A stretch of DNA of 64,000 bases. It comes from Bacteroidales bacterium. GTDB lineage: Bacteria > Bacteroidota > Bacteroidia > Bacteroidales > Muribaculaceae. Below are positions 6,881 through 39,456 of the stretch, one piece after another. Each line of letters starts with the position of its first letter. The stretch's first letter is position 1. The stretch lies in contig DXYS01000006.1 in the NCBI GenBank assembly GCA_019415705.1, positions 30,618 to 94,617 on the forward strand. Reading direction: 5' to 3'. The notes under the pieces are model-generated. The model worked only from the letters and a program-made list of their open reading frames with translations. It was not told the origin of the DNA and searched no databases. Position numbers and translations under genes: made by a program.

Positions 6881-6950
6881 GACGGCTCTTTAACAGCCCG
6901 GTGCATCCTTTTCCGTCAATTATTCCACCTTCGGCCTCGCGCGCATGCAA

Positions 6951-6958
6951 TATTTTTG
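6951..6958 (+). promoter_or_regulatory. -7 box TATTTTTG for the pectate lyase gene
   Basis: TAnnTTTG match 28 nt upstream of ATG 6986. It is embedded in the 24-nt motif shared with 10918-10941. Confidence 0.5.
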
Positions 6959-6985
6959 CATCAGAAACAAAATTCACTCGTAAAT

Positions 6986-9109
6986 ATGAACCTAAAATCT
7001 AACATCATCAGAACTCTCTGCCTCGGTGGCTCGATACTTATTGCTGCTGCTGCTTCGGCTGACAATCTGCCCGAGCGCGTGCCGGCCTTCCCCGGCGCCG
7101 AGGGTTTCGGTAAATACACCACCGGCGGTCGCGGCGGCCACGTCTACACCGTCACCTCGCTCGAAGACAGCGGCGTCGGCACTCTGCGCTGGGCCAACGA
7201 CCAGCCCGGACCGCGCACAATCGTTTTCGCTGTCTCAGGCACAATCCATCTGAAATCGTCACTCAAGCTTAAAGAAAACACCACTATCGCCGGCCAGACC
7301 GCGCCCGGCGACGGCATCTGCCTCGCCGACTACCCTGTCACGATAGCCTCCAACAGCATAGTCCGCTATATCCGCTTCCGCCTCGGCAACACTAACGTGA
7401 CCCAGAACGGCGCTGACGGATGGGACGGTCTCTCGGTCATGGACTCACACGACGTCATCGTCGACCACTGCTCGGTCAGCTGGTCTATCGACGAGTGCTG
7501 CTCGATACTCGGCAACAAAAACACCTCCCTGCAGTGGAGCATCGTCGCCCAGAGTCTCGTCAACGCCGGACACAGCAAAGGCGCTCACGGCTACGGCGGC
7601 AACTGGGGCGGCTCGGGTGCATCGTTCCACCACAATTTGGTCGTGCACCACGGCTCGCGCACTCCGCGCCTCGGCCCGCGTCCGACCACACAGCTTGACG
7701 AGCGTATGGATATGCGCAACAACGTCATCTACAACTTCGGCGGCAACGGCTGCTACGGCGGTGAAGGCATGAACGTCAACATCGTCAACAACTATTACAA
7801 ACCCGGCCCCGGCTCGCCCACAAACACCCGAGGCAAACGCATCGCCGGCATTGGTGTACGCACCAACTCTTACTGCACCACCTATCCTGACTATGCTCCG
7901 GCCCTTCACCTCTGGGGCTCATACTTTGTCGAGGGCAACATCAACTCAAAATACAGCGACGTCACCGCCGACAACTGGGCCAATGGCATGTATAACCAGA
8001 TTGACACAAGCAACTCGGCCACAGACGGCACATGGAACGACGAAGTCAAGAAGAATATCCGCCGCTCGGAGCCCGTGCCCTACTACGCCACCACGACCCA
8101 CTCGGCCGACGACGCCTACAAACGCGTGCTTGACTATGCCGGCTGCTCGCTAAGCCGTGACAACTTCGACGACCAGATGGTCGGCGACTGCCGCGTTGGC
8201 ACTGCCACAGCCACCGGCTCGAAACTATCCAAGGGTTTCGTAAACTCACAGGACGACAACACCGCCCTCGTTAAAGCCAACGGCGGCTCTGCATGGCCCA
8301 TCCTCAACTCGACCGAGGCTCCCGTCGACACTGACGGCGACGGCATACCCGACGAATGGGAAAAAGCCAACGGCCTCGACCCCGAGAAGAAAGGCGACGC
8401 CAACCTCTATAACGACGAAGGCTACACCATGCTCGAGGTCTACCTCGCATCTTTGGTCGAAGACATCACCGAAGGGCAGAACGCCGGCGGTGACATCGAG
8501 GGCGACATCCTCGCCGTCGACCCCGTCAAAGACAGCTACACCATCTCGTTAGAGACCAGCACCGGCGGCACATCGTCGTGGACCGGCGAATTTGCAGGGG
8601 GCATCCGTCTGTTCAACATCGACGACAAAGCCATCTCAATTTACCGCAAGACGCACATCGGCGTAGGCCGCGGCGTAAAACACTACATCCTGCTCCCGGC
8701 CGGCTCAGAGGTGACAGCCATCGACTTTGCAGGCAAAGGCAACACCTACCCCAACCGCACCACCGAGCCTTCGCTCGTCGAGCTTAACGGCGAGACATTC
8801 GACTCAGGCACATACAAACTGCCCACAAACCAGTCGACAGCCGACGGCAAATTCACCGTCGAACTTACCAAACCGGCCAAAGGCATGCTGACATTCACTT
8901 TTGCCGACTGCGACCCTATAATTTCCGGCATCACGCTCCACACACGCACGGCATCGACCTCAGGCATCGACGACATAGTCATCTCTGACGAAGACCCGCG
9001 CTCACAAGACCCCAACTGGTACACGCTCTCCGGTCTCAACCTCGGCACGGAGCGCCCCACAGCCGCCGGCATCTATATCAACCGCGGCCGCAAAATCGCC
9101 GTCAGATAA
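6986..9109 (+). CDS. Pectate lyase (PL1-like) with T9SS C-terminal sorting domain
   Basis: I chose ATG 6986 (signal peptide MNLKSNIIRTLCLGGSILIAAAASA). The longer ORF from 6836 starts at GTG and covers the upstream terminator and promoter. Motifs AFPGAEGFGKYTTGGRGGHVYTVTSLEDSGVGTLRWA and WDGLSVMDSHDVIVDHCSVSWSIDE are present, plus a DTDGDGIPDEWE repeat. The C-terminus is NWYTLSGLNLGTERPTAAGIYINRGRKIAVR. Confidence 0.85.
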   Translation: MNLKSNIIRTLCLGGSILIAAAASADNLPERVPAFPGAEGFGKYTTGGRGGHVYTVTSLEDSGVGTLRWANDQPGPRTIVFAVSGTIHLKSSLKLKENTTIAGQTAPGDGICLADYPVTIASNSIVRYIRFRLGNTNVTQNGADGWDGLSVMDSHDVIVDHCSVSWSIDECCSILGNKNTSLQWSIVAQSLVNAGHSKGAHGYGGNWGGSGASFHHNLVVHHGSRTPRLGPRPTTQLDERMDMRNNVIYNFGGNGCYGGEGMNVNIVNNYYKPGPGSPTNTRGKRIAGIGVRTNSYCTTYPDYAPALHLWGSYFVEGNINSKYSDVTADNWANGMYNQIDTSNSATDGTWNDEVKKNIRRSEPVPYYATTTHSADDAYKRVLDYAGCSLSRDNFDDQMVGDCRVGTATATGSKLSKGFVNSQDDNTALVKANGGSAWPILNSTEAPVDTDGDGIPDEWEKANGLDPEKKGDANLYNDEGYTMLEVYLASLVEDITEGQNAGGDIEGDILAVDPVKDSYTISLETSTGGTSSWTGEFAGGIRLFNIDDKAISIYRKTHIGVGRGVKHYILLPAGSEVTAIDFAGKGNTYPNRTTEPSLVELNGETFDSGTYKLPTNQSTADGKFTVELTKPAKGMLTFTFADCDPIISGITLHTRTASTSGIDDIVISDEDPRSQDPNWYTLSGLNLGTERPTAAGIYINRGRKIAVR

Positions 9110-9124
9110 CCGATACGCTTTTGT

Positions 9125-9168
9125 GGCGCCAAGCAGTGAGACAATTAACGCCGATACTGCTTGGCGCC
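9125..9168 (+). terminator. Hairpin after the pectate lyase gene
   Basis: 13-bp perfect stem: ggcgccaagcagt (9125-9137) pairs with actgcttggcgcc (9156-9168). There is no clear T tract. Confidence 0.45.
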
Positions 9169-9226
9169 GACACTGTCGTCACCTTTTTGCGACAAAAAAT
9201 CCACCTTTTCGGGTCAATGCAGACCT

Positions 9227-9234
9227 TAAATTTG
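9227..9234 (+). promoter_or_regulatory. -7 box TAAATTTG
   Basis: TAnnTTTG match 52 nt upstream of ATG 9286. Confidence 0.5.
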
Positions 9235-9285
9235 CGACATAGAAAAATCAACCTTTTTTACTTATAACTAATTCTTAATTTCTCC

Positions 9286-10761
9286 ATGAAGAAAACTTTA
9301 CTTCTTATGGCCGCCCTCTTCGCAGGTGCGTTCACAGTTTCGGCTCAAGAGCCCGTAGAGCCTGTAGAGCCCACTCCTTTCGTACAGCGTGACGAGGTCA
9401 AACCTCAGGCCATCCCCGGCGACCTCACACTCGGCGACTGCAAAATCACAGTAATGCAGGGCGAGACTCCCGCCAAGACTGTCTATGCAGCTCCCGGCGA
9501 AGACTCAAAATGGGAAGGCGCCACACTCGGCAATACAAACAACGGCTACACAATCGAGTATAACGTTACTTCGACCGAGGCCTCTTACTACATCATCACA
9601 TTCATGACCGGCTCGAAGAACAACGGCAGCTCGCTCGACCTCGAGATTCTCAACGGCACAACTTCTGTCTGGAAAGGCACAATGAACGTCCCCAACAACG
9701 GTCAGTGGTCAGGACGCAACTGGGCTAACCCCTATTGCATCGTCGACACAGAGATTCCCGCAGGCTCTTATAACTTCGTCATCACCTGCAAACAGGAAGA
9801 CCCTGCAGCTAACGTGGTCAACATCGCCGGCATCAACTTCGCAGCACGCTCTGAAGTCCCCGAAACCAGCGAGCTCTACACCGCCTGCACTCTTATGACT
9901 GCCTCAGGTGAAGAAGACGGCACCGAAGCCGGCTCTATAGTCGTAGCTCCTGCAATGGACAGCTACATCTCAGGTACAGAAATCACTCTGACCGCACGCG
10001 CCAACACAGGCTACAAATTCCTCTACTTCGTCAACAACTCAGTGCCCGACACTCATATCGAGGAAAACCCCTACAAGTTCAACATCGGCTCTGACGCCAA
10101 CGACTTCACTGCTTACTTCGAGGAGTTAGACATGATGAATCCTATCCCCGGCACAATGTCGCTCGACAAAGCTTATGACGTTGTAGGCTTTGGTAAAGGC
10201 AAAGAGTGGAACGTGACTGCAAATGGCAAAATCGCCGAAGTAGGTAGCTCGGAGTTCATTGCTACTGATAATATTCAGTATTTCAGCGACATGCGCCAGC
10301 CCTCATCAGCTTGCTTCAAAGTTGATGTAAAACAGGCCGGTTCTTATACCGTAACATTCGGTGCTGCGACAAAGAATGAGGGCTCATCAATAGCTTTCAC
10401 TCTTACAGATGCTGATAATGAAGCTAATGTTGTAAACGTAGGGCCCTTCACCTCTAAAACAGACTTCGCAATTTCAGGCCAGTGGAAAAACTTCCAAATG
10501 GTTAAGAGCCAGCCCTTCACCCTCACAGCCGGTAAGAAAGTCCTTAAACTCGACTTCAAAGGTGCAACTGCAGGTAAAGAGACTCTCAATCTCTGCAACA
10601 TCAGCTTCGCTCTCGAAGGCAGCAGCGGCATCGATGATATCGTAGTCGGCGAAGGCGAAATCAACGGTGAGGTCAAGGCTTACAACCTGCAGGGCATCGA
10701 GGTCGCTCCCGACACCAAAGGTCTCATCATCATCAACGGCAAAAAAGTTTACAACAAATAA
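9286..10761 (+). CDS. Secreted non-catalytic carbohydrate-binding protein (two CBM-like beta-sandwich modules) with T9SS C-terminal domain
   Basis: 491 aa with signal peptide MKKTLLLMAALFAGAFTVSAQ. Two CBM-like modules are separated by the InlB-B-repeat-like segment GSIVVAPAMDSYISGTEITLTARANTGYKFLYF. The C-terminus is KAYNLQGIEVAPDTKGLIIINGKKVYNK. I recognised no catalytic motif. Confidence 0.6.
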   Translation: MKKTLLLMAALFAGAFTVSAQEPVEPVEPTPFVQRDEVKPQAIPGDLTLGDCKITVMQGETPAKTVYAAPGEDSKWEGATLGNTNNGYTIEYNVTSTEASYYIITFMTGSKNNGSSLDLEILNGTTSVWKGTMNVPNNGQWSGRNWANPYCIVDTEIPAGSYNFVITCKQEDPAANVVNIAGINFAARSEVPETSELYTACTLMTASGEEDGTEAGSIVVAPAMDSYISGTEITLTARANTGYKFLYFVNNSVPDTHIEENPYKFNIGSDANDFTAYFEELDMMNPIPGTMSLDKAYDVVGFGKGKEWNVTANGKIAEVGSSEFIATDNIQYFSDMRQPSSACFKVDVKQAGSYTVTFGAATKNEGSSIAFTLTDADNEANVVNVGPFTSKTDFAISGQWKNFQMVKSQPFTLTAGKKVLKLDFKGATAGKETLNLCNISFALEGSSGIDDIVVGEGEINGEVKAYNLQGIEVAPDTKGLIIINGKKVYNK

Positions 10762-10784
10762 TAAACTCACGCCATAAACCCACT

Positions 10785-10821
10785 GACGCGCCGACTCTTA
10801 CGAGCCGGCGCGTCTTCGTTT
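10785..10821 (+). terminator. Terminator after the CBM protein gene
   Basis: Stem gacgcgccg (10785-10793) pairs with cggcgcgtc (10806-10814), followed by ttcgttt. Confidence 0.7.
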
Positions 10822-10923
10822 AAACCCCGGCAGAGATGGGCAGATATTTTGCTTAATTCTAAAAATAATCGTAAATAAGTCATTTTGTAACAAAAAATAC
10901 ACCCATACGTGCAATTAATGCAT

Positions 10924-10931
10924 TATCTTTG
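10924..10931 (+). promoter_or_regulatory. -7 box TATCTTTG with no CDS behind it
   Basis: TAnnTTTG match. The next CDS (11208) has its own -7 box at 11163-11170, and a terminator lies in between. Confidence 0.5.
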
Positions 10932-10937
10932 CATCAG

Positions 10938-11117
10938 AAAATCAAAGATAGAAATTGGTTTAAAAATTAGGTTTAAACAAGACAGACTGATAATACAACA
11001 AATTTGGTTTAGGTTAATAGGAAGAAAAACAGTCTCCAAAGAAGGTACTGTGATGAAGAAAAGTTCTTAAACAAGGCCGGGTCGACCGCAGTTGATTGCG
11101 TTCGGCCCGTTTTTTTA
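10938..11117 (+). ncRNA. Candidate ~180-nt small RNA (or attenuating leader) upstream of the GH3 gene
   Basis: Bounded by the -7 box at 10924-10931 and a terminator: stem gggtcgaccgc (11079-11089) pairs with gcgttcggccc (11098-11108), followed by gttttttt. It contains four GGTT(T/A)A motifs and no ORF above 6 codons. Confidence 0.35.
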
Positions 11118-11162
11118 TCCCTTTGTGTCAACTAATACTCCCTAATAACGACTAATCGTCAA

Positions 11163-11170
11163 TAACTTTG
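11163..11170 (+). promoter_or_regulatory. -7 box TAACTTTG for the GH3 gene
   Basis: TAnnTTTG match 38 nt upstream of ATG 11208. Confidence 0.5.
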
Positions 11171-11207
11171 AATATCCAAACCATGATAATAATCACAATC
11201 CGACCCA

Positions 11208-13787
11208 ATGAATCCGATACTGAAAAAACTGACAATCGCCGTCGCAATTGCCGCTATGGCATCAATGACTTCGCGAGCGGACACCGCTTTGCCCTATCAG
11301 AATCCGCAGCTGAGCGCCGACGAGCGTGCCGCTGACCTCTGCTCGCGTCTGACGACCGACGAGAAGGTCAAACTGATGATGAACTCATCGCCGGCCATAG
11401 AACGTCTCGGCATCCCCGCCTTCGACTGGTGGAGCGAGGCCCTGCACGGCGTCGGTCGCAACGGACTCGCTACTGTCTTCCCGTCGTGCATCGGCATGGC
11501 CGCCTCATTCAACGACTCGCTGATTTATGACGTATTCACCGCCGTCAGCGACGAGGCCAGAGCCAAAAACACGATAGCACGCCGTAACGGCCGTGTCGGC
11601 AAATACCGCTGTCTGTCATTCTGGACGCCGACCGTCAACATCTTCCGTGACCCTCGCTGGGGGCGCGGGCAGGAAACATACGGCGAAGACCCGTATATGA
11701 ACGGCCGCATGGGCTCTGTCGTCATCAAAGCCTTACAGGGTCCGTCAGACACAAGCTATCGCAAACTGCTTGCATGCGCCAAGCATTTTGCCGTGCACAG
11801 CGGCCCCGAGAAAACCCGACACAGCCTCAACATCGAGAATCTGCCGGCGCGTGACCTTTGGGAGAGTTATCTGCCGGCCTTCAAAGACCTCATCGACGCC
11901 GACGCGCGCGAGGTTATGTGCGCCTATCAGCGTTTCGAGGGCGATCCGTGCTGCGGCTCAGACCGCCTGCTCCAGCAGATTCTGCGCGAGGAGTGGGGCT
12001 TTGACGGTCTGGTGGTAACCGACTGCGGCGCCATTACCGACTTCCACGGCAAAAACAAACACGGCGTCTCGCCTGATGCCGCCGCTGCCTCGGCAAAAGC
12101 CGTCCGCTCCGGCTCTGACGTCGAGTGCGGCCAGAATTACCGCGCTCTCCCCGTCGCACTTGAGCGTGGCGAAATCACAATCGACGAAATCGACCGCAGC
12201 GTGCGTCGTCTGCTCAAGGCGCGCTTTGAACTCGGCGACTTCGACCCAGACTCGCTCGTCAGCTGGACGCAGATACCCGAGTCGGTGATCAACTGCAAGG
12301 CTCATCAGGACCTCGCTCTCGAGATGGCACGTCAGCAGACCGTACTGCTCACAAACAAAGGTATTCTGCCGCTTGACCGCAAAGACGGCAAACGCATCAT
12401 GGTCATGGGACCCAACGCCGCCGACTCGACAATGCAGTGGGGCATCTACTACGGCCAGCCCGGTCACACGGTGACAATCCTTGACGGCATCCGGGAGAAA
12501 ATCGGCGACGTAGACTACACCCCCGCCTGCGGCATAACCTCTATGACCGAGAGCGTCAGCATCTTCGACCGCATCGGTCAGCCCGACGGCACGAAAGGTC
12601 TGGCAGCCTCTTACTGGAACAACACCGCTCTCGACGGCGCCCCTGACGTCAAGACCGTATACACCGCTCCCATCCATTTGGACAACGGCGGCAACACGGC
12701 CTTCGCGCCCGGCGTCAACCTCGAGAACTTCAGCACACGCATGCGCGGACGCTTCACGGCCGAAAAGACTGAGGAGCTGACCATCAAATTCGCCAACGAC
12801 GACGGCATGCGCATCATAGTCAACGGCGATACCATCCACAACCGCTGGAAGGTCGACCAGATGAATCTGCGCACACTCGCCCTCAACGTCGAGCAGGGCA
12901 AGACCTACGACATCGAAATCAACTACATGCAACTCACTGACGACGCTACGCTCAACTTTGATATCACCCGTGAGCGCGAGGTGACTCCCGCCGAAATCGT
13001 CAAGCGCGCCGACGGCCACGACATTATCATATTTGTCGGCGGCATCTCGCCGGCCTTGGAGCGCGAGCAGGCACGTGTGACCAATCCGGGTTTTGACAAT
13101 GGCGACCGCACGTCGATCGAGCTGCCTCAGGCCCAGCGCGACATCATCGACGCACTCGTCAAAGCAGGCAAAAAAGTGGTGCTCGTCAACTGCAGCGGCA
13201 GCGCCGTGGCCCTCGCACCCGAGGCCGCGCTCTGCGACGCCATTGTCGAGGCATGGTATCCCGGCGAGCAGGGCGGCTCAGCCATCGCCGATATACTTTT
13301 CGGCGACTGTAACCCCTCGGGCAAGCTCCCCGTGACATTCTACACCTCTGACGCACAGCTGCCCGCCGACTTCGAAGATTACCGCATGACCGGACGCACC
13401 TACAGATATCTGCGCGAGAAGCCGCTCTTTGAGTTCGGACACGGACTGAGCTATACCACCTTTGAGTACGGCAAACAGTCATACAAAGACGGTCGTGTCA
13501 CCGTCAAAATCAAAAATACGGGACGCCGCACCGGCACAGAGACAGTTCAGCTCTATCTGCGCCGCCCGGCCGACACCGAGGGGCCTGCGAAAACCCTCAG
13601 AGGCTATGAGCGCGTGACACTCGAGCCGGGCGAAAGCCGCGCTGTCACAATCGATATGCCGCGTGAGCGCTTTGAGACATGGGACGAAACTGCAGGCCGC
13701 ATGCGTGTCATCGGCGGCGACTATCAGCTGATGGTCGGCTCGTCGAGCGCCGACAAAAACCTCAAGACAATCAATGTAAAGATATAA
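11208..13787 (+). CDS. GH3 beta-glucosidase/beta-xylosidase with PA14-like insert
   Basis: 859 aa. GH3 motifs SEALHGV, FRDPRWGRGQETYGEDP, KHFAVHS and GLVVTDCGA are present. A PA14-like segment lies at about 12598-12975 (AASYWNNTALDG...IKFANDDGMRIIVNGD). A C-terminal Fn3-like domain follows. Confidence 0.9.
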   Translation: MNPILKKLTIAVAIAAMASMTSRADTALPYQNPQLSADERAADLCSRLTTDEKVKLMMNSSPAIERLGIPAFDWWSEALHGVGRNGLATVFPSCIGMAASFNDSLIYDVFTAVSDEARAKNTIARRNGRVGKYRCLSFWTPTVNIFRDPRWGRGQETYGEDPYMNGRMGSVVIKALQGPSDTSYRKLLACAKHFAVHSGPEKTRHSLNIENLPARDLWESYLPAFKDLIDADAREVMCAYQRFEGDPCCGSDRLLQQILREEWGFDGLVVTDCGAITDFHGKNKHGVSPDAAAASAKAVRSGSDVECGQNYRALPVALERGEITIDEIDRSVRRLLKARFELGDFDPDSLVSWTQIPESVINCKAHQDLALEMARQQTVLLTNKGILPLDRKDGKRIMVMGPNAADSTMQWGIYYGQPGHTVTILDGIREKIGDVDYTPACGITSMTESVSIFDRIGQPDGTKGLAASYWNNTALDGAPDVKTVYTAPIHLDNGGNTAFAPGVNLENFSTRMRGRFTAEKTEELTIKFANDDGMRIIVNGDTIHNRWKVDQMNLRTLALNVEQGKTYDIEINYMQLTDDATLNFDITREREVTPAEIVKRADGHDIIIFVGGISPALEREQARVTNPGFDNGDRTSIELPQAQRDIIDALVKAGKKVVLVNCSGSAVALAPEAALCDAIVEAWYPGEQGGSAIADILFGDCNPSGKLPVTFYTSDAQLPADFEDYRMTGRTYRYLREKPLFEFGHGLSYTTFEYGKQSYKDGRVTVKIKNTGRRTGTETVQLYLRRPADTEGPAKTLRGYERVTLEPGESRAVTIDMPRERFETWDETAGRMRVIGGDYQLMVGSSSADKNLKTINVKI

Positions 13788-14055: not shown

Positions 14056-17000
14056 TTACATTGACTCGGAGGCGTCATTCTTACGTTTGGCATGGGCACG
14101 GTACTCCGACGGAGTCATGCCGGTCTCTTTCTTAAAACACTTGGTAAAATACTTCGGATCAGAGAAACCGACATTGAAGGCAATCTGCGAAAAATTGAGT
14201 TTACTGCCCGCAATGAGGTCGGCGGCACGCTGCATGCGTATGTGTCGCAGGAAATCGCTCGGCGACATGCCTACGAGTGACTTAACCTTACCGTAGAAGA
14301 CAGTGCGTCCGAGATTGACCGCCTCGGCAAGTTCCTCAATCTTGAGATTCTCATCATCTATGCGCGCCTCAAGAAATTTGAGCAACCTACTCATCATCTC
14401 CTGATCGGCGTCGGCTATCACGGGCGTGTCAAGACGCCATTTAGATACATCCTGCTCGGGAGCCTGAGCCGGCAGATTCTCTTCAGTCAGACCGACCGGG
14501 GACTCATCAGGCTGACCTGTCGGACTCGTCTCCTCGGATGCCTCAGGCTGCTGAGGACGTTTCTGAATCATCTCCAAGTAAGTATGCTGCAGCATGCGCC
14601 GTTGTAAGATTATATTGGCTATGCGTTGCTTGAGATAGCTCGGCGAGAACGGCTTGGTGATATAATCGTCGATGCCCTCGCGCAGACCCTGCACTCGGTC
14701 GCTGACCGACGCCTTGGCCGAGAGGACGATAATCGGGATATGGCTCAACGACTTATTCTGCTTGATATTATGCACCATTGTCAGGCCGTCCATCTCGGGC
14801 ATCATGACATCAGTAATAATAAAGTCAGGCTGAATATCCTCGGCCATTTTGAGGCCCTGCTTGCCGTTCTCGGCCACATAGACCGTGTAATTCGGAGCAA
14901 GAATATCACGCAGGAAATTGCGCAAATCGTCATTGTCCTCTACAATGAGCAGTCTGACATTCTTGGCCCCGGGGACGGTCTGCAAATCAGGCTCAATGAT
15001 ATGGTCCTGAGGATATTTGCGTATGTCGTTTATACCGACGGTCTCGATGCGGTTCTCGTCTGAGATATATACACCGTTATCCTGACTCCAGCGGAGCATC
15101 TTGTTGACAAGCTCGAGCATATTGTCAGAATTTCTGACAACTTTTTCGAGATGCTTACGGCTCTCTGGCTTAAGCTCGGGCTCCTTGAGGACCTCGCGAA
15201 CGGGAGCCGAGATAAGAGTCAGAGGGGTGCGCAGCTTGTGGCTGACATCAGCGAAAAAGCGTGTCTTCATGCGGTCTAACTCACTATGCAACGCATTTTT
15301 GCGTCGCAGCATATAAATATGGAGCACACCGTAGACAAGGAGCAGACCGAACAATATATACAGAATCTTGGCAATCGAAGTTTCCCAGAATGTCGGCTTG
15401 GCATATATTTCGAGCACCGTGACATTGTCACACCACACTCCGTCGGCATTGGTACTCTTTACCTCGAGATAGTGACGACCCGGACTCATATGCGACAAAT
15501 AGGCTGTGTTGGAGTTCCCTATATATGTCCACTCGCCGTTGTCACGAAGACGATAGGCATACTGCACTGATGCGTCAGCCGAGTAATCGACGGCGGCAAA
15601 CTGCACAGCCACGTTGCGGCGGTCTGAAGGCAAATCTATGCGGTCATGATGAAGGAGTGACAGTCCGTCAGACTCGCCCTGATATGTAAGTTTGGTGAAA
15701 ACGATGTTAGGGCTGAAATCACTGCGGATTATCTCGGACGGAAGGACGGAAATCATGCCGCCCACAGCCCCGAGCCAGATGCGTCCGTCGGCCGGAGCGA
15801 CAGCCGGAAGCGCCTCGGTAAACTCTAAATATTCACCTAATTCGTTAGGCCCGAGAGATATAATCTCGTCGGTTTCAGGCGAATAGACTGACATACTGCC
15901 GTCGCGGACAATATAAATATTACCCGCTTTGTCATCAATCATCGACAGCACGTTGCCGTCACGGAAAACTGAACGCTTGCCCGCACCGCCGGGGCCTAAC
16001 TTGCTGTCTGACTCAAACGGCAGCTGGGGCTGCAACAGATCAGGTGTCTTTATGCGCTGCAGCTCGCCGCCCATGGTAGAGACAAATATGTCGCCCGAGC
16101 GTGTGGCAAGTGCCTGCATGACATTGCTCGTGCGCAGAGATGTCTCGTCACCGGTGCGTCCGGTAGTCGGGAAGTAGGCTATCGACGATGGGTCGTTAAA
16201 ACGGTTTGAGAATGTCAGCAGACCTGTTGTTGTCGACACTATCACGACACCTTTGCCGTCATGGGTGATACGGCGGATATTCTCAAAGCGGTCGAGAGGA
16301 TATGTCGACAGACCGTTACGCTTGTTGAGGAACTTATATGTCCCGTCAGCCTGTCTGACTGCAAGATTCAGGCCTCCGCCATAGGTGCCAATCCAGATAT
16401 TTCCCTTCTCGTCCTCGTCGACCGAGTAAACTGCGTCGCAGCTGATTGCCGACCGGTCTGACGCATCAGGCATATAGTGGTTTAGACGATCACCGCTGAT
16501 GGTGAAGAGGCCGGCGCCCTTCGTTCCGACCCATATTGTGCCGCGCGAATCCTCAAACATGGAGTAAATCTTGTCGGCGAATTTGCGCGGCTCCGTGCTC
16601 TCGGCTATGCGGTCGCCGTTAGCCACTATATAATGCAGCAAACGTCCGTCAGAGTCAAACACCCCGATATAACCCGAGGCCGTACCGGCCCATATGTTAC
16701 CGTTCTCGAGCGCAAGCAGTGAGCGCGTCTCCTGATTTTTGACGAAGGGGACACGGCGCACATCGTGATACTTGAAATTTACGAGCACAAGGTCATGGAA
16801 GGAGCTGAGCCACAGATTATTGTTGGCATCTATAAAGAAACGCTCGATTTCGGGCACATCGGCAAAACCGAAATGTGGCGACTGCAACGCACACGAGACA
16901 ATGCGGTGGTCGAGCTCGTCAAAATATGAGAATACACCTCCGCGAGGCACAAACCATATTGTCCCCGAATTATCCTCAAGCCATATAGGTAAACGCGAGC

Positions 17001-18045
17001 CGGGAGTGCCTTTCGAATCGGGAAGCGACGCAAATCGCTCGACTTTCTTGCCGGAGGCATCTGTAAGCACGATGCCGTCGGCGCTCGTAAACGCCCATAT
17101 ACGCTTTTTAGAGTCTACAAATATGTCTGTGACATTTGCCGCTTGTGTCATAGGCTCACCCACCTCAATAAGCAGCGACGATGTCTTTTTCTTGTCGCGG
17201 ACATAGATGCCGCGGTTGGTGCCGATGAGCAGAGTATTGTCATCAAGGGCCTGCAGGGTGTTGATGCGCGTGCGGTCGGCAGGACTGTTGACCGGATTGA
17301 GTTCCTTGGCACCGGGACGCATTACATAGATGGCACCGTCACCTGTGGCAAGGAATGTGTCGTCACCGACCGACGCTATATGTTCGAAAGCCCCTTCGGC
17401 GGCAATTTTTGTACCATAGAGAGACACGCAGTTGTCATAAAACACCCATTCGCGGCCGGCGGCGTCAGTCTCGACCTTACGTACGTAGCTGTTGGCCTTG
17501 TTGCTCACCGGAGCAGTGCCAAGACCATACACCTCCATGCTGTCGGCTACTGTGGGGGCGTTGTCATTGATTCGCACAGCTGTGCGCCGGCCGTGACCGA
17601 CGACCCATGTATGGCCGTCGGGGGTCGAATATATGTTGCGGGCCTCGAAATCCGTCCCGAGACGCGTCTTGAGAGTAGAGTTAATATTGATGAATTTTGA
17701 CTCTGAAGTGTCAAATAGATATAACTGACGGTCATAAGTTATCAACCAGATATCGCCGTTCGAATTGGGCTTAATCATCAATATGCGGTTAGTCGGCAGC
17801 CAGCCGTTCTCGGGGCTGGAGCGGAAGGTCTCGAAGTTGTAACCGTCATAGTAACAGAGGCCGTTCCATGTCGAAGCCCATATCAGGCCGTCTTTGCTTT
17901 GGGCGATTGTCGACACATTATTGGCCGGGAGACCGTCACGGATATTGAAGGTACGCACACTGCAATAGGGCTGTGCCACGACAGACATAGCCGACATGAT
18001 GGCCACGGCCACACTCACAATAAATTTAGTCATTCTCACGTTCAT
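14056..18045 (-). CDS. Hybrid two-component system regulator (beta-propeller sensor, Y_Y_Y, TM, HisKA, REC, AraC HTH) apparently lacking the HATPase_c domain
   Basis: 1329 aa. It has about 13 propeller-blade motifs (e.g. GDIWLITYD, GTIWVGTKGAGL, GNIWIGTYGGGL), a Y_Y_Y-like YAYRLRDNGEWTYIG, the TM segment IAKILYILFGLLLVYGVLHIYML and the HisKA motif FFADVSHKLRTPLT. The REC domain reads VRLLIVEDNDD...ITDVMMPEMDG. The AraC HTH reads FSDPKYFTKCFKKETGMTPSEYR. Confidence 0.9.
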   Translation of the reverse strand: MNVRMTKFIVSVAVAIMSAMSVVAQPYCSVRTFNIRDGLPANNVSTIAQSKDGLIWASTWNGLCYYDGYNFETFRSSPENGWLPTNRILMIKPNSNGDIWLITYDRQLYLFDTSESKFININSTLKTRLGTDFEARNIYSTPDGHTWVVGHGRRTAVRINDNAPTVADSMEVYGLGTAPVSNKANSYVRKVETDAAGREWVFYDNCVSLYGTKIAAEGAFEHIASVGDDTFLATGDGAIYVMRPGAKELNPVNSPADRTRINTLQALDDNTLLIGTNRGIYVRDKKKTSSLLIEVGEPMTQAANVTDIFVDSKKRIWAFTSADGIVLTDASGKKVERFASLPDSKGTPGSRLPIWLEDNSGTIWFVPRGGVFSYFDELDHRIVSCALQSPHFGFADVPEIERFFIDANNNLWLSSFHDLVLVNFKYHDVRRVPFVKNQETRSLLALENGNIWAGTASGYIGVFDSDGRLLHYIVANGDRIAESTEPRKFADKIYSMFEDSRGTIWVGTKGAGLFTISGDRLNHYMPDASDRSAISCDAVYSVDEDEKGNIWIGTYGGGLNLAVRQADGTYKFLNKRNGLSTYPLDRFENIRRITHDGKGVVIVSTTTGLLTFSNRFNDPSSIAYFPTTGRTGDETSLRTSNVMQALATRSGDIFVSTMGGELQRIKTPDLLQPQLPFESDSKLGPGGAGKRSVFRDGNVLSMIDDKAGNIYIVRDGSMSVYSPETDEIISLGPNELGEYLEFTEALPAVAPADGRIWLGAVGGMISVLPSEIIRSDFSPNIVFTKLTYQGESDGLSLLHHDRIDLPSDRRNVAVQFAAVDYSADASVQYAYRLRDNGEWTYIGNSNTAYLSHMSPGRHYLEVKSTNADGVWCDNVTVLEIYAKPTFWETSIAKILYILFGLLLVYGVLHIYMLRRKNALHSELDRMKTRFFADVSHKLRTPLTLISAPVREVLKEPELKPESRKHLEKVVRNSDNMLELVNKMLRWSQDNGVYISDENRIETVGINDIRKYPQDHIIEPDLQTVPGAKNVRLLIVEDNDDLRNFLRDILAPNYTVYVAENGKQGLKMAEDIQPDFIITDVMMPEMDGLTMVHNIKQNKSLSHIPIIVLSAKASVSDRVQGLREGIDDYITKPFSPSYLKQRIANIILQRRMLQHTYLEMIQKRPQQPEASEETSPTGQPDESPVGLTEENLPAQAPEQDVSKWRLDTPVIADADQEMMSRLLKFLEARIDDENLKIEELAEAVNLGRTVFYGKVKSLVGMSPSDFLRHIRMQRAADLIAGSKLNFSQIAFNVGFSDPKYFTKCFKKETGMTPSEYRAHAKRKNDASESM

Positions 18046-18272: not shown

Positions 18273-19172
18273 ATGTTAAAAGGAGTTTCAAAAGTTCTTT
18301 TTGTGATGCTTTTAGCCATGACTTCATGCTCCGGGCACGACGATGCCATCGACGGCGGCGGTCTCAACAAACCCGAGACCGAACAGCAGACCGTGACGAT
18401 GACGATTTCGCGTGCGAGCGCATCGGAGTTTGTGGAAGCAGGCATCACGCAGCTATCAGTCTACACATATAAAGTAGACCGTAAAGTCACAACCCTCTTC
18501 GACGAGCAGACAGTCGATGTCAGCAGCAGCGAGTTTAACGGCGCTGTGCTTACACACAGTTTTCCCCTCGGCGAGATATTTCAGACAGTCATCGCGGCCA
18601 ATGTAGGCTCTGTCACCGGCAAGGAGAGCCTGTCGACACTGACATTCCATTTTGACCCGCTCGGCGACAAGGAGGTATGGGCAAGCCCCGTCATCCGTTT
18701 CATGTCTGACAAATCGGTCAGCGAACTCAATTTCGAGTTAGACCGCATCATCGCACGCATCAAATTCGAGCCCGCAGAAACACAGGCCGAACTCGGCGCG
18801 TTCGACAGTTTTGACAAAATCAAAGTCACATTCACCAACCTTGCGTCAAGCTACATGCCTCTGACTAAAGAAGTCGAGCTCTCTGACCTCACCGTCGAGA
18901 CAGACGCGTCGGCCGGCTACCGCACACAGGTCTACACATTCGCCACCACAAGCACCCAGACCAATGGCGGTGTGAATATCGAGTACTTCAAAGCAGGTAA
19001 CTCCGTCAACACATCAGCATCGCTCTTAGAGACCGGTATCACATATGCAGCCTCGGGCGACTACACTCTGCGCGTTCCTCTCACATCACCCGATTTCGTG
19101 ACTGTCCCGTGGACTACCGGCGCACGCTCAGCCTCGCAGGCTAAGTTTGAGGTCATCACGTCGACTCTTTAA
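18273..19172 (+). CDS. Lipoprotein, fimbrillin/Mfa2-like fold suspected (possible surface glycan-binding protein)
   Basis: 299 aa with lipobox LLAMTSC. The pattern QLSVYTYKV...TVIAANVG...LDRIIARIKFEP resembles FimB/Mfa2-family proteins. This is pattern recall only. Confidence 0.45.
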   Translation: MLKGVSKVLFVMLLAMTSCSGHDDAIDGGGLNKPETEQQTVTMTISRASASEFVEAGITQLSVYTYKVDRKVTTLFDEQTVDVSSSEFNGAVLTHSFPLGEIFQTVIAANVGSVTGKESLSTLTFHFDPLGDKEVWASPVIRFMSDKSVSELNFELDRIIARIKFEPAETQAELGAFDSFDKIKVTFTNLASSYMPLTKEVELSDLTVETDASAGYRTQVYTFATTSTQTNGGVNIEYFKAGNSVNTSASLLETGITYAASGDYTLRVPLTSPDFVTVPWTTGARSASQAKFEVITSTL

Positions 19173-19190
19173 CCTTTGAAAAGTATACTC

Positions 19191-20912
19191 ATGAATATCA
19201 ACTTTAAATACGGCCTCATCGCGGCAGGTCTCGCAGTCAGCTTTGCCGCCTGTGACAAAGAAGAGGTCTATGACTCGCCTGTGACCCGCGAGATCAACAT
19301 GACTCTTGACGGTGAAAAGTGGGACATATACTACGGCACCGACGAGAACAATCACCCCTTATTTATATATAACGCCGACGGCAAGTATTTCGCCAACTAC
19401 GGCACATCCTATCACATCACCCTGCCGGCAGGCGGTTACAAAATCATCTGCACCAATCAGGCTAAACTGATGACTCCGCCCATCAGCCTCGGTGAGCAGA
19501 TTATCGAACAGGACCCTGAGACCAAGCAGACATTCGGCATCTCTGACCCCGTCGATTATACTCCCGGCACCCCGATGGTGCTCCCGATGAAGACACGCAC
19601 CGGCATGCTGCGTCTGCGCGCCACCGACTCAAAGGCCGACCGCACTTACAGCACCATCCGCGCCGTCTTCACGACTCCCGTGACAGCTTACTCAGTCGGC
19701 GAGGCAAAACCAATCGTCGGTGAGCCTCTCGAGCTGACTCGCGACAAAGCTACAACCGGCGGCGGTGTCGGCTATACTGACGACGCCATCCTGATCGAGA
19801 CAGGCTCTGTCGACCGCAAGGTAGGCATCCGCATCGACTATCTCGACGACGACATGAACTTAGTGCGTTCAAAGAGCTTTGCAGATGATTTCGCCGTGCT
19901 CGCCAACGACACCGTCGAGGTATCGTTCGCGCTCAACAACGCCGACGAGCCTGTCATCATCAACTATAACATCGCTCTCGCATCCGAAGGCTGGCAGCCC
20001 CAGACCGTCTACCCGTCGGTCAAGGTCGATGTGCCTGACGGATACACCTACGTAACACCCGACGACGACTTCAACGCTATCTTCACACAACTCAAAAACG
20101 ACCCGAGCGTAGATCAGATTAAGATTTTCCTCAAAGCCAACGGCTCATACACACTGCCCGACGCATCTGTCAAGGGTCTCAACAAAGGCGTGTCGCTCGT
20201 GGCTCAGAAGCCCGGCTACGGACAGCGTCAGGCTACACTCAGTGTCAAGAATATTTCTCTGGCAGGCAACCTCAAACCCATACATTTCGAGAATCTGTCA
20301 ATCGCACAGGCCGGCCGTATGTTCAACATCGCCCGCACCGACGAGTTCACTCTCGACGCACTTGAGTTTGTCAACTGTCGCTTCGACAACTGGACAGGCC
20401 AGATCTGGAAACAGGCAACAAACACGACGCGTACACAACGCATTAACTCTGTCGTGATGGACGAGTGTGTTGTCGCCAACTACTCTCCCGCCGGCCCGAT
20501 GTTTGACGCCGCCACGACAGCCACATCGTCGATGCCCTCTTGGACATTCAGCAATACAGTCTTCCACGGCCGCAATTACAGCACACGCACAGTCGTGCTC
20601 AACGGCCTCAACAAGATGACCGATGCACTCGACATCACTGTCGACGGCTGCACATTCCTCGACGCACGCGGCACAGCATTCACCTACTTCAACATCGACG
20701 CCGCTGCCGCACAGTCATCGACGCTCACTGTCACCGGCAACCGTCTCGGTGGTGTGCAGGCTGCCGCAACATGGTTTAATCTCGGCAAGGTCGACAACGT
20801 AACCGCAAGTGGCAACACACGCTGCGCAGGCTACAACATCACATGGGGTGTGACCGAGCCCGCCGAAACAGACCAGACATTTGAAGAGCTCCTCAACTCA
20901 CTCAATTTATAA
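19191..20912 (+). CDS. Lipoprotein with C-terminal right-handed beta-helix-like repeats (DUF4957/DUF5123-like, pectin-PUL surface protein type)
   Basis: I preferred ATG 19191 (MNINFKYGLIAAGLAVSFAAC lipobox) because the track start 19176 is TTG. Periodic repeats are present: LEFVNCRFDN, VVMDECVVAN, FSNTVFHGRN, ITVDGCTFLD, LTVTGNRLGG. Confidence 0.55.
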   Translation: MNINFKYGLIAAGLAVSFAACDKEEVYDSPVTREINMTLDGEKWDIYYGTDENNHPLFIYNADGKYFANYGTSYHITLPAGGYKIICTNQAKLMTPPISLGEQIIEQDPETKQTFGISDPVDYTPGTPMVLPMKTRTGMLRLRATDSKADRTYSTIRAVFTTPVTAYSVGEAKPIVGEPLELTRDKATTGGGVGYTDDAILIETGSVDRKVGIRIDYLDDDMNLVRSKSFADDFAVLANDTVEVSFALNNADEPVIINYNIALASEGWQPQTVYPSVKVDVPDGYTYVTPDDDFNAIFTQLKNDPSVDQIKIFLKANGSYTLPDASVKGLNKGVSLVAQKPGYGQRQATLSVKNISLAGNLKPIHFENLSIAQAGRMFNIARTDEFTLDALEFVNCRFDNWTGQIWKQATNTTRTQRINSVVMDECVVANYSPAGPMFDAATTATSSMPSWTFSNTVFHGRNYSTRTVVLNGLNKMTDALDITVDGCTFLDARGTAFTYFNIDAAAAQSSTLTVTGNRLGGVQAAATWFNLGKVDNVTASGNTRCAGYNITWGVTEPAETDQTFEELLNSLNL

Positions 20913-20934
20913 CCTTAGCTAATACCATCACAAT

Positions 20935-23900
20935 ATGAACAAAATATTATTGACGATATGTCTTGTTCTGGCAAGCGCGCTCGGCGCGCTTGCACAGACA
21001 AGCACCGTGACGGGCACTGTGACAGACGGCGAAGAGCCGCTCATCGGTGCGAGCGTCAAAGTCGAAGGCACCCAGATAGCAGCCGTCACCGACATCGACG
21101 GCAACTTCGAGCTCAAAGGCGTCAATGCCGCCAAAGCAGTCCTTTTGGTCAGCTACGTCGGCATGGACACCCAGAAATTCCCCCTCAAGGGCCAGACAAC
21201 CGGCGTGGAGATTGTTCTCAAAGCCAACGTCGAGGCAATGGACGAACTTGTGGTCATCGGCTACGGCACGCAGAAACGCGGCAACCTCACCGGCTCTATG
21301 GCCCGTGTCGAGGCCAAGGTCATCGAACGTGTCCCCGTGGCTAACGTCGGCGAAGCTATCGTCGGCCGTATGCCCGGTGTGCAGGTCACTACCGCCGACG
21401 GCTCGCCTGACGCCGAAATCACCGTCCGCGTACGTGGCGGCGGCTCTATCACACAGGACAACCAGCCGCTCGTGCTTATCGACGGTTTCGAAGGCTCGAT
21501 GAACGACGTGCCTCCCACCGATGTCGAGAGCATCGAAGTGCTCAAGGATGCCGCTTCGACAGCCATCTACGGTGCGCGCGGCGCCAACGGTGTTGTGCTC
21601 ATCACGACCAAACGCCCCAACGAAGGCCGCGTACAGATCAGCGTCAACGCCTACATGCAGACAAAAGAGCTCTCCAACAAGCTCGACGTACTCGACCCCT
21701 ATAACTTCATCCGCGCCAACTATCAGCGCATCCGTCCCAAAGGCGCAAGCGCCGGCAACGGTTTCGCCAACAACTTCGGCCAGCCTTACGAATGGTATAT
21801 CTATCAGGGCTACGAAGGCTATGACTGGCAGGATATCATCTTCGGCAAAAACCCCATCTCGTCATCGGTCGACGCTAACATCACCGGCGGCAACGAGACA
21901 TTCAAGTTCAAGGTAAGCTTCATGCATCAGGACCAGCCGAGCGTTATGCCTGACAACGGTCTCGTGCAGAACAACCTCAACCTCAACCTCAATCTCAAAC
22001 TCTTCCCCTTCCTGAGCGTCGAATACCGCAGCCGCTACTTAGACAAGACACTCAACGGCCGCGGCACCGAGGGTATCGACCTTCTCACCGCCCTGCAGGA
22101 GCGTCCGACAAACGGTCTTCAGGACTTCACATCAGTTCCTGACGACAACGATATCTTCGACGACGGCACATTCGAAGAGTACTATCACTACGATCCTCTC
22201 GAGACAAACTCCCGCTACTACCGCAAACGCAACTCAAAACTCCTCAACATGGGCGGCGCCCTCACATGGAACATCATGAAAGGCATGACCCTGCGCAACG
22301 AGTTTGTATATGAGGACTACCGCGAGAACGACCGTCAGTTCAACGCCGCCAACTCCAACAGCGCGTCACGCACTTACGGCCCCAACCTCACCGAACAGGA
22401 CAAAAACCGCACGAAATGGCAGATAAGCAACGTGCTTAACTACAACTTCGACATCGCCGAAGTCAACAACGTCCAGCTCATGCTCGGTCAGGAGATGAAA
22501 AGCGAGGACACACGCACCAAACGTGTCTACATCGGCTACTTCCCCGACAACATCGACGCTGAGAAGGCATTTGACAACTTTGCCCTCGGCACCGTTATCT
22601 CAAATACCTCGAGCCACCCCTCGCAAAACCGCATCTCATCGTTCTTCGGACGTATCAACTACAGCTATGACGACCGTTATCTCGCCACAGTCACACTGCG
22701 TACTGACGGCAGCTCTAAATTTGCCCGCGGCAACCGCTGGGGCTGGTTCCCCGCTGTCGCTCTCGCATGGCGTATGTCTAACGAGGCCTTCCTCCGCGAC
22801 GTCACATGGCTGAGCAACCTCAAACTCCGTCTCTCTTACGGTGAGTCGGGTAACGACCGTATCGCATCAGACCTCTATCTCAAGCTCTACAAGCTCGGCG
22901 ACATCAGCAAGGCACCGGGTTGGGGCGAGACCGGCAACTACTGGTATGAATTCCAGAATGCCTACCCCATCAACCCCGACGTAAAATGGGAGAAAACAAT
23001 CACCCGCAACATCGGTCTTGACTTCTCGTTCCTCAACAGCCGCTTTGACGGTACACTCGACCTCTATTGGAATACTACAAAAGACCTCCTTCTCGAGACC
23101 CAGATTCCCGGTGACACCGGTTTCACCAAGATGATGACCAACGTCGGCCAGACATCAAACAAAGGTGTCGAACTTAACCTCAACGCCTATATCATCGAGC
23201 GTAAGGACTTCACTCTCGGAGCCAACTTCAACATCGGCTTCAATAAAGGCAAGATCGACAAGCTCTCGGGCGACGAGAAATCGTTCTATACATCGGCTCC
23301 CAAAGGCGTAGATGTCAACGAAGACATTTTCTGGTATAACGTCGGCGAGACGATGGGCAACATCTACGGCTATGTCAACGATGGTTTCTACCGTGTCGAG
23401 GACTTCAACTATGACGAAGTGGCCCGCACATATACTCTTAAAGACGGCATCGTCGACTGCTCGCTGCTCGCCGGCAACCTGCAGCCCGGCTCGCCCAAGT
23501 TCAAGAAACTGAGCAATGACCCCAATGACCCCAACCGTTATATCCTGACCGCCGACGACCGCGCTGTCATCGGCAACACAACCCCGAAAGTATCGGGCGG
23601 TTTCGGCATCAACGCCACATACAAAGGTTTCGACCTCAACGCCTTCTTTAACTTCATGTGCGGATTTGACGTAATCAACCTAAACAAAATCCACATGGGC
23701 ACAGTCCCCGGCAACTCGAGCGACTACCGCAACCTCTCGTCTGAGTTCGCCAACATGTTCTGGCGTTACGACGAAATGGGCAACGATATGTGGCGCACAC
23801 CCGAAATCTGGGCCGAATACAACAAGAACGCCACGATGTGGAATCCGTCTAACATGTCCAAGACATTCATCTCGACCTATGGCGTCGAAGACGGCTCGTT

Positions 23901-24132
23901 CCTGCGTCTCAACAACCTGACCGTCGGCTATTCGCTGCCGACAAAGGCTCTCAGATTCGTAGGCATGTCAAAATGCCGTTTCTATGTCACCGGCTACAAT
24001 CTCTTCACCGTCACCAAGTACAGCGGCTATGACCCCGAGGTCAATATCGCACAGGGCACATCGCCCAACATCGACTACAAGATGTATCCCCGCAGCCGCA
24101 CATACACATTTGGCGTACAACTCTCATTCTAA
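20935..24132 (+). CDS. SusC/RagA-family TonB-dependent outer-membrane transporter
   Basis: 1065 aa. It has an N-terminal carboxypeptidase-regulatory-like domain (TVTGTVTDGEEPLIGASVKVEG), the plug motif ELVVIGYGTQKRGNLTGS, and the C-terminal barrel end YPRSRTYTFGVQLSF. Confidence 0.95.
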   Translation: MNKILLTICLVLASALGALAQTSTVTGTVTDGEEPLIGASVKVEGTQIAAVTDIDGNFELKGVNAAKAVLLVSYVGMDTQKFPLKGQTTGVEIVLKANVEAMDELVVIGYGTQKRGNLTGSMARVEAKVIERVPVANVGEAIVGRMPGVQVTTADGSPDAEITVRVRGGGSITQDNQPLVLIDGFEGSMNDVPPTDVESIEVLKDAASTAIYGARGANGVVLITTKRPNEGRVQISVNAYMQTKELSNKLDVLDPYNFIRANYQRIRPKGASAGNGFANNFGQPYEWYIYQGYEGYDWQDIIFGKNPISSSVDANITGGNETFKFKVSFMHQDQPSVMPDNGLVQNNLNLNLNLKLFPFLSVEYRSRYLDKTLNGRGTEGIDLLTALQERPTNGLQDFTSVPDDNDIFDDGTFEEYYHYDPLETNSRYYRKRNSKLLNMGGALTWNIMKGMTLRNEFVYEDYRENDRQFNAANSNSASRTYGPNLTEQDKNRTKWQISNVLNYNFDIAEVNNVQLMLGQEMKSEDTRTKRVYIGYFPDNIDAEKAFDNFALGTVISNTSSHPSQNRISSFFGRINYSYDDRYLATVTLRTDGSSKFARGNRWGWFPAVALAWRMSNEAFLRDVTWLSNLKLRLSYGESGNDRIASDLYLKLYKLGDISKAPGWGETGNYWYEFQNAYPINPDVKWEKTITRNIGLDFSFLNSRFDGTLDLYWNTTKDLLLETQIPGDTGFTKMMTNVGQTSNKGVELNLNAYIIERKDFTLGANFNIGFNKGKIDKLSGDEKSFYTSAPKGVDVNEDIFWYNVGETMGNIYGYVNDGFYRVEDFNYDEVARTYTLKDGIVDCSLLAGNLQPGSPKFKKLSNDPNDPNRYILTADDRAVIGNTTPKVSGGFGINATYKGFDLNAFFNFMCGFDVINLNKIHMGTVPGNSSDYRNLSSEFANMFWRYDEMGNDMWRTPEIWAEYNKNATMWNPSNMSKTFISTYGVEDGSFLRLNNLTVGYSLPTKALRFVGMSKCRFYVTGYNLFTVTKYSGYDPEVNIAQGTSPNIDYKMYPRSRTYTFGVQLSF

Positions 24133-39447: not shown

Positions 39448-39456
39448 CTATCCTCC

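Follow-up and report, generated by a model that had tools for sequence, protein, structure and literature searches.

Hybrid two-component systems (HTCS) are the main switches that set which dietary fibres gut Bacteroidota consume, and they are assumed to run on ATP-driven autophosphorylation. In canonical members such as BT4663, BT1754 and BT4124 of B. thetaiotaomicron, a Reg_prop/Y_Y_Y sensor leads through a single transmembrane (TM) helix into a HisKA domain, the dimerization and histidine phosphotransfer (DHp) hairpin with its SHxLRTPL H-box, which is followed by a HATPase_c or catalytic and ATP-binding (CA) domain, a receiver (REC) with a full active site and an S/CHIP motif, and an AraC DNA-binding domain; the gene adjoins a susC/susD polysaccharide utilization locus (PUL). 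Here we describe an HTCS-type regulator of 1329 aa, encoded by a single, intact open reading frame (ORF) at 14056-18045 (-) in a 64-kb stretch of a Bacteroidales genome (contig DXYS01000006.1 of assembly GCA_019415705.1; this whole stretch is called the window below). The window protein is like canonical HTCS in the features just listed, but the whole HATPase_c domain, some 150-170 aa with the N, G1 and G2 boxes, is missing. In addition, the residue following the phospho-accepting His (H+1) is Lys and not Glu or Asp, and the connector from Y_Y_Y to this His is four residues shorter (52 versus 56).

Other described proteins share part of this layout. Spo0B and ChpT are soluble, stand-alone proteins with a degenerate CA-like alpha/beta domain, which shuttle phosphate between two other proteins. 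The window protein resembles them, and the 'incomplete' HisKA-only proteins, in its DHp-type hairpin, in the conserved His of that hairpin and in the lack of ATP-driven autophosphorylation. However, it has no CA-like fold, is membrane-bound, and has its DHp domain built in between the transmembrane sensor and the REC-AraC module of the same chain, which together rule out a phosphotransferase of the Spo0B/ChpT type. BguR from Formosa agariphila (bioRxiv 10.64898/2026.01.10.698779) likewise has an HTCS-like sensor of tandem propellers plus Y_Y_Y, one TM helix, a cytoplasmic helix-turn-helix (HTH) domain and a link to a PUL, and also lacks an ATP-dependent kinase. Unlike BguR, which has neither HisKA nor REC and ends in a GerE/LuxR HTH, the window protein keeps both domains with all phospho-residues and has an AraC HTH; with HisKA and REC present, an AraC output and no GerE match in a Pfam scan of the window protein, we could rule out a one-component regulator of the BguR type. 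BguR is more closely matched by the AraC-type sensor-TM-AraC proteins nested in the family described below (P0030-P0036). Finally, phosphatase-biased HisKA sensors such as the Deinococcus bacteriophytochrome, a light-activated phosphatase (PMC8292422), also keep Thr or Asn at H+4, and they share the mode of action that we propose here, in which the signal would control dephosphorylation of the receiver and not kinase activity. Those sensors keep the CA domain and the acidic H+1, whereas in the window protein the kinase half-reaction is structurally impossible.

Judged by its domains and motifs, the window protein should work most like a canonical HTCS, having every HTCS feature but HATPase_c and the acidic H+1. 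We nevertheless treat it as a member of a distinct, kinase-less, HTCS-derived subfamily and do not file it as a canonical HTCS. The variant is genuine, conserved and widespread, and it belongs to a known class of regulators. A widespread and strongly conserved subfamily that is physically unable to autophosphorylate challenges the assumption of ATP-driven signalling for a whole branch of PUL regulators, and because cultured carriers exist its mechanism is directly testable.

Absence of the ATP-binding domain

The initial annotation, made from the letters of the window, had described a protein with HisKA, REC and AraC domains, no room for HATPase_c between the first two, and no N-box, G1 or G2 motif. 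Pfam recovered the three domains; the full order is Reg_prop/Y_Y_Y sensor, TM helix, HisKA, a disordered linker of 40 aa, REC and AraC. The landmarks had been placed exactly: the His936 codon (CAC) lies at 15240-15238, inside FFADVSHKLRTPLT, the codon of V1030 (GTC), the first residue of VRLLIVEDNDD, lies at 14958-14956, and 94 codons separate the two, as claimed. [quoted passage not shown]

Pfam gave no HATPase_c match in the window protein, even at E<=10. A custom CA profile, made with the corresponding domains of 61 canonical HTCS relatives, likewise found nothing when run, with filters off, against all stop-to-stop pieces in the six frames of the window (best E=1); this search and a Pfam scan of all large ORFs rule out a frameshifted CA remnant or a split CA gene in the window. 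In alignments, the N-box (NLxSNAFKYT), G1 (DxGxGI) and G2 (GIGLSLVK) of the nearest CA-bearing relatives span about 170 columns, and this entire block is gapped in the window protein and its kin. The linker that occupies the position differs in sequence and length between family members. An AlphaFold2 (AF2) model of aa 883-1329 (mean predicted local distance difference test, pLDDT, 77) consists of a long helix that passes through the membrane and forms DHp helix 1, a turn, DHp helix 2, 33 disordered residues (aa 991-1023, pLDDT <50), a receiver fold, a second disordered linker and the AraC domain. A Foldseek search of the PDB with this model retrieved receiver folds only, and the model has no alpha/beta domain after DHp. 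A cryptic or diverged CA domain is ruled out by the combination of Pfam, CA profile, AF2, Foldseek and alignment. The data therefore show that the window protein cannot bind ATP through a GHKL fold, and what had first been read from the sequence held up in full: there is no room for HATPase_c, none of its three boxes is present, and in orthologues the segment is truly absent and is not a diverged but complete domain.

The bare absence of a normally obligatory domain is the only point in favour of a lesion private to this genome, be it an in-frame deletion of recent date, gene decay or a mistake in assembly. An independent metagenome contig, also deposited as a Bacteroidales metagenome-assembled genome (MAG), carries a 98%-identical protein of identical architecture with a matching PUL and gene order, which excludes an assembly artefact. 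Between the window gene and this sister-strain gene the ratio of nonsynonymous to synonymous divergence (dN/dS) is 0.054 at a dS of 0.18, and there is not one amino-acid change in aa 884-1069, so that DHp, linker and the start of REC are identical. The data thus show that purifying selection acts on the sensor, the TM helix and the DHp, REC and AraC domains, all of them intact, and the initial judgement that the intact frame did not look like simple decay was sound. Moreover, no frame of the window holds a CA remnant, and the architecture recurs in at least 110 species genomes and in about 40 clusters at 50% identity that form one clade. We consider the probability of a private lesion negligible. 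Of the suggestion that an in-frame deletion had left a kinase-dead sensor, the kinase-less part stands; a private or recent deletion does not, because the loss is lineage-wide, ancient and monophyletic, with members down to 35% identity. The best explanation is that a subfamily of HTCS has lost the whole CA/HATPase_c domain and that autophosphorylation is not possible in it.

Distribution and ancestry of the CA-less family

In a whole-protein homology search the 29 closest clusters (36-98% identity) all had HisKA, REC and AraC and all lacked PF02518, while canonical HTCS with PF02518 turned up only at 30% identity or less. Alignment to orthologues, which had been suggested as a check on the initial annotation, showed that the CA gap is lineage-wide. 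We then looked for the peptide HKLRTPLTL, a pattern that biases the scan towards K at H+1, in 185,579 species, each represented by one genome, and confirmed 110 CA-less loci. The carriers belong to Prevotella, Segatella, Xylanibacter, Muribaculaceae, Duncaniella and Bacteroidaceae, and cultured ones include Segatella bryantii DSM 11371, Xylanibacter muris, X. rodentium and Muribaculaceae MF13079. Locus statistics were taken on the best 80 of the 110 loci; the His precedes REC by 83-122 aa and the C-terminus by 337-438 aa in all 80, and the latter distance leaves no room for a CA domain. Across the family the distance from His to REC is 79-122 aa, compared with 229-294 aa in canonical HTCS. When the TM-DHp-linker-REC-AraC region was turned into a profile and run against 1.84 billion representatives at 50% identity, about 40 CA-less representatives ranked ahead of canonical HTCS, and one human-gut cluster alone has 667 member sequences. 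The subfamily is thus present in abundant Prevotella/Segatella of the human gut and rumen and in mouse Muribaculaceae, and on this conservation it very probably constitutes a functional, kinase-less family.

Public annotations list the family as 'response regulator' or 'DNA-binding response OmpR family regulator/ligand-binding sensor domain-containing protein'. Annotation and PUL-prediction pipelines that label these proteins 'response regulator' may mis-score HTCS counts or PUL inducibility. We found no earlier description of a CA-less HTCS subfamily in the openly licensed PMC and bioRxiv literature, a body of text with incomplete coverage. The regulator also occurs on MAG contigs labelled Flexilinea, Lachnospiraceae, Oscillospiraceae, Sphaerochaetaceae, Waltera, Oribacterium and Clostridia (loci L004, L019, L054, L057-L062, L077 and L081), most likely through binning contamination rather than horizontal transfer.

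Neighbour-joining trees of the sensor domain and of DHp+REC+AraC both place the CA-less family in a single clade with the canonical HTCS P0033 as its sister, and the CA loss is evidently ancient and conserved across many species of Prevotella and Muribaculaceae. It was not, however, a single event for all HTCS. P0328 and P0348 (about 980 aa) also lack CA but are nested among other canonical HTCS, have a different, shorter sensor and keep an acidic H+1 (GHELRTPL and RHELRTPL), and they represent a second, independent CA-less lineage.

Further reduced proteins fall inside or beside the CA-less clade at several points. These proteins (P0030-P0036; 880-1060 aa) have the layout sensor-TM-AraC, without DHp and REC. 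For example, P0030 shares 76% identity over 925 aa with the CA-less P0025, and 69% over AraC, with residues 925-1145 cleanly excised. P0030 is also syntenic with a CA-less human-gut orthologue, in a gene order of GAPDH, IPPT, GH133, GT, GH57, regulator, GH3-CBM6 and a pectinesterase-fold gene. Another of these proteins, P0031, was seen on 12 contigs, adjoining GH2 and Pel9A-like genes. One clade, and in part one syntenic locus, therefore offers a natural series of full HTCS, CA-less and DHp/REC-less proteins, suited to tracing the collapse of a two-component system into a one-component regulator and to telling the DHp residues with a kinase function from those with a phosphatase function. Overall, these comparisons confirm the initial observation and support and sharpen its interpretation through the lineage-wide gap, the change at H+1 and the further reduced relatives.

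Conserved residues and candidate mechanisms

Without a CA domain the protein must obtain or control phosphate in an unconventional way, and the H-box indicates which half of the DHp chemistry has been given up. H936, R939, T940 (H+4) and P941 are invariant across the family. Among the 40 CA-less representatives H+1 is K in 18, R in 11, Q in 8 and E in 3, so that 37 have K, R or Q, and the window protein has K (SHK); all CA-bearing relatives examined, about 97 plus 76 in the first search, have E or D. Lys as an absolute family signature was ruled out by the unbiased profile search, which recovered K, R, Q and rarely E. In HisKA proteins an acidic H+1 is needed only for kinase activity, and Thr or Asn at H+4 is required for phosphatase but not for kinase activity (Willett and Kirby, 2012; PMC3510030). 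With its acidic H+1 lost and T940 kept, the family has shed a kinase-specific residue and retained a phosphatase-specific one.

The replacement of the acidic H+1 argues against autophosphorylation of the His by any CA domain, in cis or in trans, and this bears on the idea, already raised in the initial annotation, that the protein is phosphorylated in trans. The His could receive phosphate from the CA domain of a canonical HTCS or kinase elsewhere, by heterodimerization or a passing visit, or a Spo0B/ChpT-like relay could carry phosphate from another receiver to the protein's own REC. Consistent with such a role, the His is invariant and DHp highly conserved, carrier genomes hold canonical HTCS, one of which adjoins a family member (L068), and tethered HTCS have been argued to have relaxed histidine kinase-response regulator specificity (Townsend et al., 2013, as cited in PMC11253607), so that cross-reaction with a paralogue is plausible. 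The residue required for His autophosphorylation (PMC3510030) is, however, replaced in 37 of the 40 representatives, and the family has no conserved partner in cis. Neither the CA profile nor Pfam revealed a gene for a histidine kinase or any other HATPase_c protein in the window, and the CA profile matched only two neighbouring ORFs (in L068 and L007) in 1.36 Mb of flanking DNA from 81 loci; these two matches are incidental, and a conserved neighbouring kinase across the family is ruled out. A relay would need a further donor receiver, and the degenerate CA-like domain that known phosphotransferases of the Spo0B/ChpT type retain is absent here. We regard phosphorylation of the His in trans as unlikely. 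The original suggestion is thereby narrowed to two forms, in which either REC is the domain that is phosphorylated or phosphate is transferred by a route independent of the H+1 residue.

The receiver shows no comparable change. Its active site in the window protein is formed by E1036, D1037, D1079 (codon 14809-14811), S1109 and K1131, and among genome loci chosen without regard to REC these positions are conserved in 76 of 76. Loss of the Asp, Thr/Ser or Lys active-site residues, the mark of a pseudo-receiver, was found nowhere in the family, in which all are invariant. The S/CHIP motif reads S-H-I-P at aa 1101-1104, with H1102, I1103 and P1104 invariant, and D1214 and K1253 are conserved 39 residues apart, a spacing like that of D1344 and K1383 in BT4124; from this spacing and the alignment to 12aw, the two pairs are probably equivalent. 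Mean column conservation, taken as the mean frequency of the top residue in the family, reaches 0.71 in DHp, 0.79 in REC and 0.75 in AraC, against 0.52 in the sensor and about 0.34 in either linker. The family has thus kept every residue predicted to serve Asp phosphorylation and DHp-catalysed dephosphorylation.

The connector between sensor and DHp has also changed. Counted from where Y_Y_Y ends (P-x-F-W-E-T) up to the phospho-His, it measures 52 aa in all but two of 141 CA-less proteins (139), whereas 83 of 101 canonical HTCS have 56 aa and another 14 have 63 aa; a length of 56 aa is shared by P0269, a basal CA-less protein, and P0033, the canonical sister of the family. In the window protein this connector spans aa 884-936 (15238-15399), and the difference in length sits at the cytoplasmic end of the TM helix. 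As four residues are not a whole heptad, the helical phase of the H-box relative to the sensor should differ. In addition, DHp helix 2 ends in RWSQ/xYSx and not, as in canonical HTCS, in DFRK.

We tentatively propose that the protein is a kinase-less sensor whose DHp domain would serve no REC but its own, as a phosphatase under ligand control or a docking site, with REC phosphorylated from outside. DHp would no longer be a kinase substrate but would survive as a ligand-controlled surface for docking and dephosphorylation of REC, and REC would be charged by an external donor, either acetyl phosphate or cross-talk from other kinases. In the absence of glycan, DHp would keep REC dephosphorylated and REC would hold the AraC domain inactive. 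Binding of a PUL oligosaccharide to the periplasmic propellers would then re-set the TM/DHp helices and switch the phosphatase off, phosphorylated REC would build up, and its inhibition of the DNA-binding domain would be relieved, with activation of the divergent susC/susD operon and flanking carbohydrate-active enzyme (CAZyme) genes. Acetate-producing Bacteroidales generate acetyl phosphate. HTCS REC domains autophosphorylate in vitro from a small-molecule donor, and in canonical HTCS an interface of the S/CHIP motif with the D-K pair lets unphosphorylated REC hold AraC inactive until phosphorylation relieves it (PMC11253607).

Several observations weigh against this proposal. Relatives without DHp and REC occur at the matching locus beside the same CAZymes, where the sensor can be wired to AraC without phospho-chemistry, and phosphorylation may accordingly be dispensable. 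The phosphatase activity of HisKA proteins is not strictly dependent on the His in every kinase studied, and an invariant His would equally fit a role in phosphotransfer. Canonical HTCS show the same invariance at T940, R939 and P941, and structural constraint could in part explain why these residues persist. Moreover, the second CA-less lineage keeps H-E, and the change from E to K, R or Q is therefore not obligatory.

The reduced relatives lend themselves to an account free of phosphorylation altogether, in which DHp would be a dimeric helical rod and REC a structural clamp on AraC, and ligand binding would release or re-orient the DNA-binding domains allosterically. Such signalling would fit the absence of both a CA domain and a conserved partner kinase. 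The sensor-TM-AraC proteins nest in the clade at several points, P0030 sits at a syntenic locus with DHp-linker-REC excised, BguR has been shown genetically to activate a PUL as an ATP-independent, HTCS-like one-component regulator (bioRxiv 10.64898/2026.01.10.698779), and BT4236 of B. thetaiotaomicron has Q in place of the phospho-His (PMC11253607). It is difficult to reconcile, however, with the invariance of the Asp-phosphorylation residues, the His and the Thr at H+4 in more than 100 sequences down to 35% identity, positions at which pseudo-receivers and phosphorylation-independent regulators normally drift, and with the persistence of the S/CHIP interface, which phosphorylation relieves in canonical HTCS. 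We judge phosphorylation-free signalling to be improbable for the CA-less proteins.

Ligand-gated dephosphorylation of REC, the mechanism that we prefer, can be extended to the history of the clade. In this more doubtful scenario the family would consist of living intermediates between two-component and one-component signalling, in which DHp turned into a ligand-gated phosphatase and REC came to be charged by acetyl phosphate, and DHp-REC was later dropped in sub-lineages. If REC is charged by acetyl phosphate, PUL induction would combine glycan availability with the fermentative state of the cell; if the family members are intermediates, several sub-lineages would have completed the transition to a transmembrane one-component AraC regulator.

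Genomic setting

The regulator adjoins a divergent susC/susD PUL, its predicted target, and CAZyme genes lie on both sides (Table 1). Among the 80 family loci, a GH3-PA14 homologue adjoins the regulator in 38, and the prevalent human-gut version has GH28, GH43 and GH3-CBM6 neighbours. A CAZyme set of GH3-PA14, GH3-CBM6/35, GH43, GH28 or pectinesterase-fold proteins and DUF5123 points to a pectic or hemicellulosic substrate with xylose or arabinose decorations as the likely source of the inducing glycan.

Table 1. Coordinates of the regulator, its domains and the neighbouring PUL genes in the window
Feature	Position	Strand	Basis
Complete gene, CA-less hybrid two-component-type regulator, 1329 aa	14056..18045	(-)	ORF list, Pfam architecture, 98%-identical orthologue, dN/dS
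Periplasmic sensor, aa ~25-885: Reg_prop beta-propeller repeats and Y_Y_Y (aa 820-880)	15391..17973	(-)	Pfam Reg_prop E 7e-27, Y_Y_Y E 1.5e-5
TM helix, aa ~890-912, running on into DHp helix 1	15310..15378	(-)	AF2 helix, fragment residues 8-71
HisKA/DHp, aa 926-988	15082..15270	(-)	Pfam HisKA E 1.9e-12, profile positions 1-62 of 66; AF2 helical hairpin
H-box SHKLRTPL, aa 935-942	15220..15243	(-)	His936 codon 15238-15240, Lys937 (H+1) 15235-15237, Thr940 (H+4) 15226-15228
Linker, aa 989-1029, in the HATPase_c position	14959..15081	(-)	Alignments; AF2 pLDDT <50
Receiver domain, aa 1030-1145	14611..14958	(-)	Pfam Response_reg aa 1033-1142, E 3.8e-27
AraC-type DNA-binding domain, aa ~1210-1317	14095..14418	(-)	Pfam HTH_18 (aa 1239-1317) 6.8e-21, HTH_AraC 8e-19
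Divergent PUL core: two lipoproteins without Pfam match, SusC-like (20935-24132), SusD-like (24154-26091), DUF5123 protein, GH43	18273..29594	(+)	Pfam; gene order repeated on independent contig
Flanking CAZyme genes: 1383-aa pectinesterase-fold protein, 757-aa unknown, CBM6 protein, GH3-PA14	2652..13787	(+)	Pfam
GH3-CBM6-CBM35 enzyme, member of the conserved CAZyme set	31289..34417	(+)	Pfam; type also adjoins family members in human-gut Prevotella loci

In human-gut Prevotella/Segatella (L082-L084 and L087) the family member lies between a glycogen-type GH133-GT-GH57 cluster and GH28/GH3/GH43 genes. In a transcriptome of S. copri DSM18205, pectin-induced genes (GH28 and GH43_10) are located directly beside GH133/GT4/GH57, a flank as in L082 and L087 (PMC11784079). 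If DSM18205 carries a CA-less regulator at that locus, this would suggest a pectic inducer for the PUL type.

The 757-aa protein (6836-9109 (+)) has no Pfam match and adjoins a CA-less regulator in 26 of the 80 loci; it is probably an uncharacterised CAZyme or an accessory protein for this type of PUL. The two consecutive lipoprotein-like ORFs (299 and 578 aa; 18273-20912 (+)) lie directly upstream of susC, a position that is unusual for genes resembling those of surface glycan-binding proteins, and are kept in 7 of the 80 loci.

Elsewhere in the window, and unrelated to the PUL, the genes at 37463-43055 encode an ADP-ribosylglycohydrolase (-), a WYL/WCX-domain regulator (-), a 610-aa RtcB-RF-1/PrfH-like fusion and an AAA ATPase, a cluster that looks like an RNA-repair or ribosome-rescue module in which RtcB and a release-factor-like protein are fused. 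Finally, a 996-aa ORF at 52901-55891 (+) joins a GH3 N-terminal domain to a beta-lactamase-family domain.

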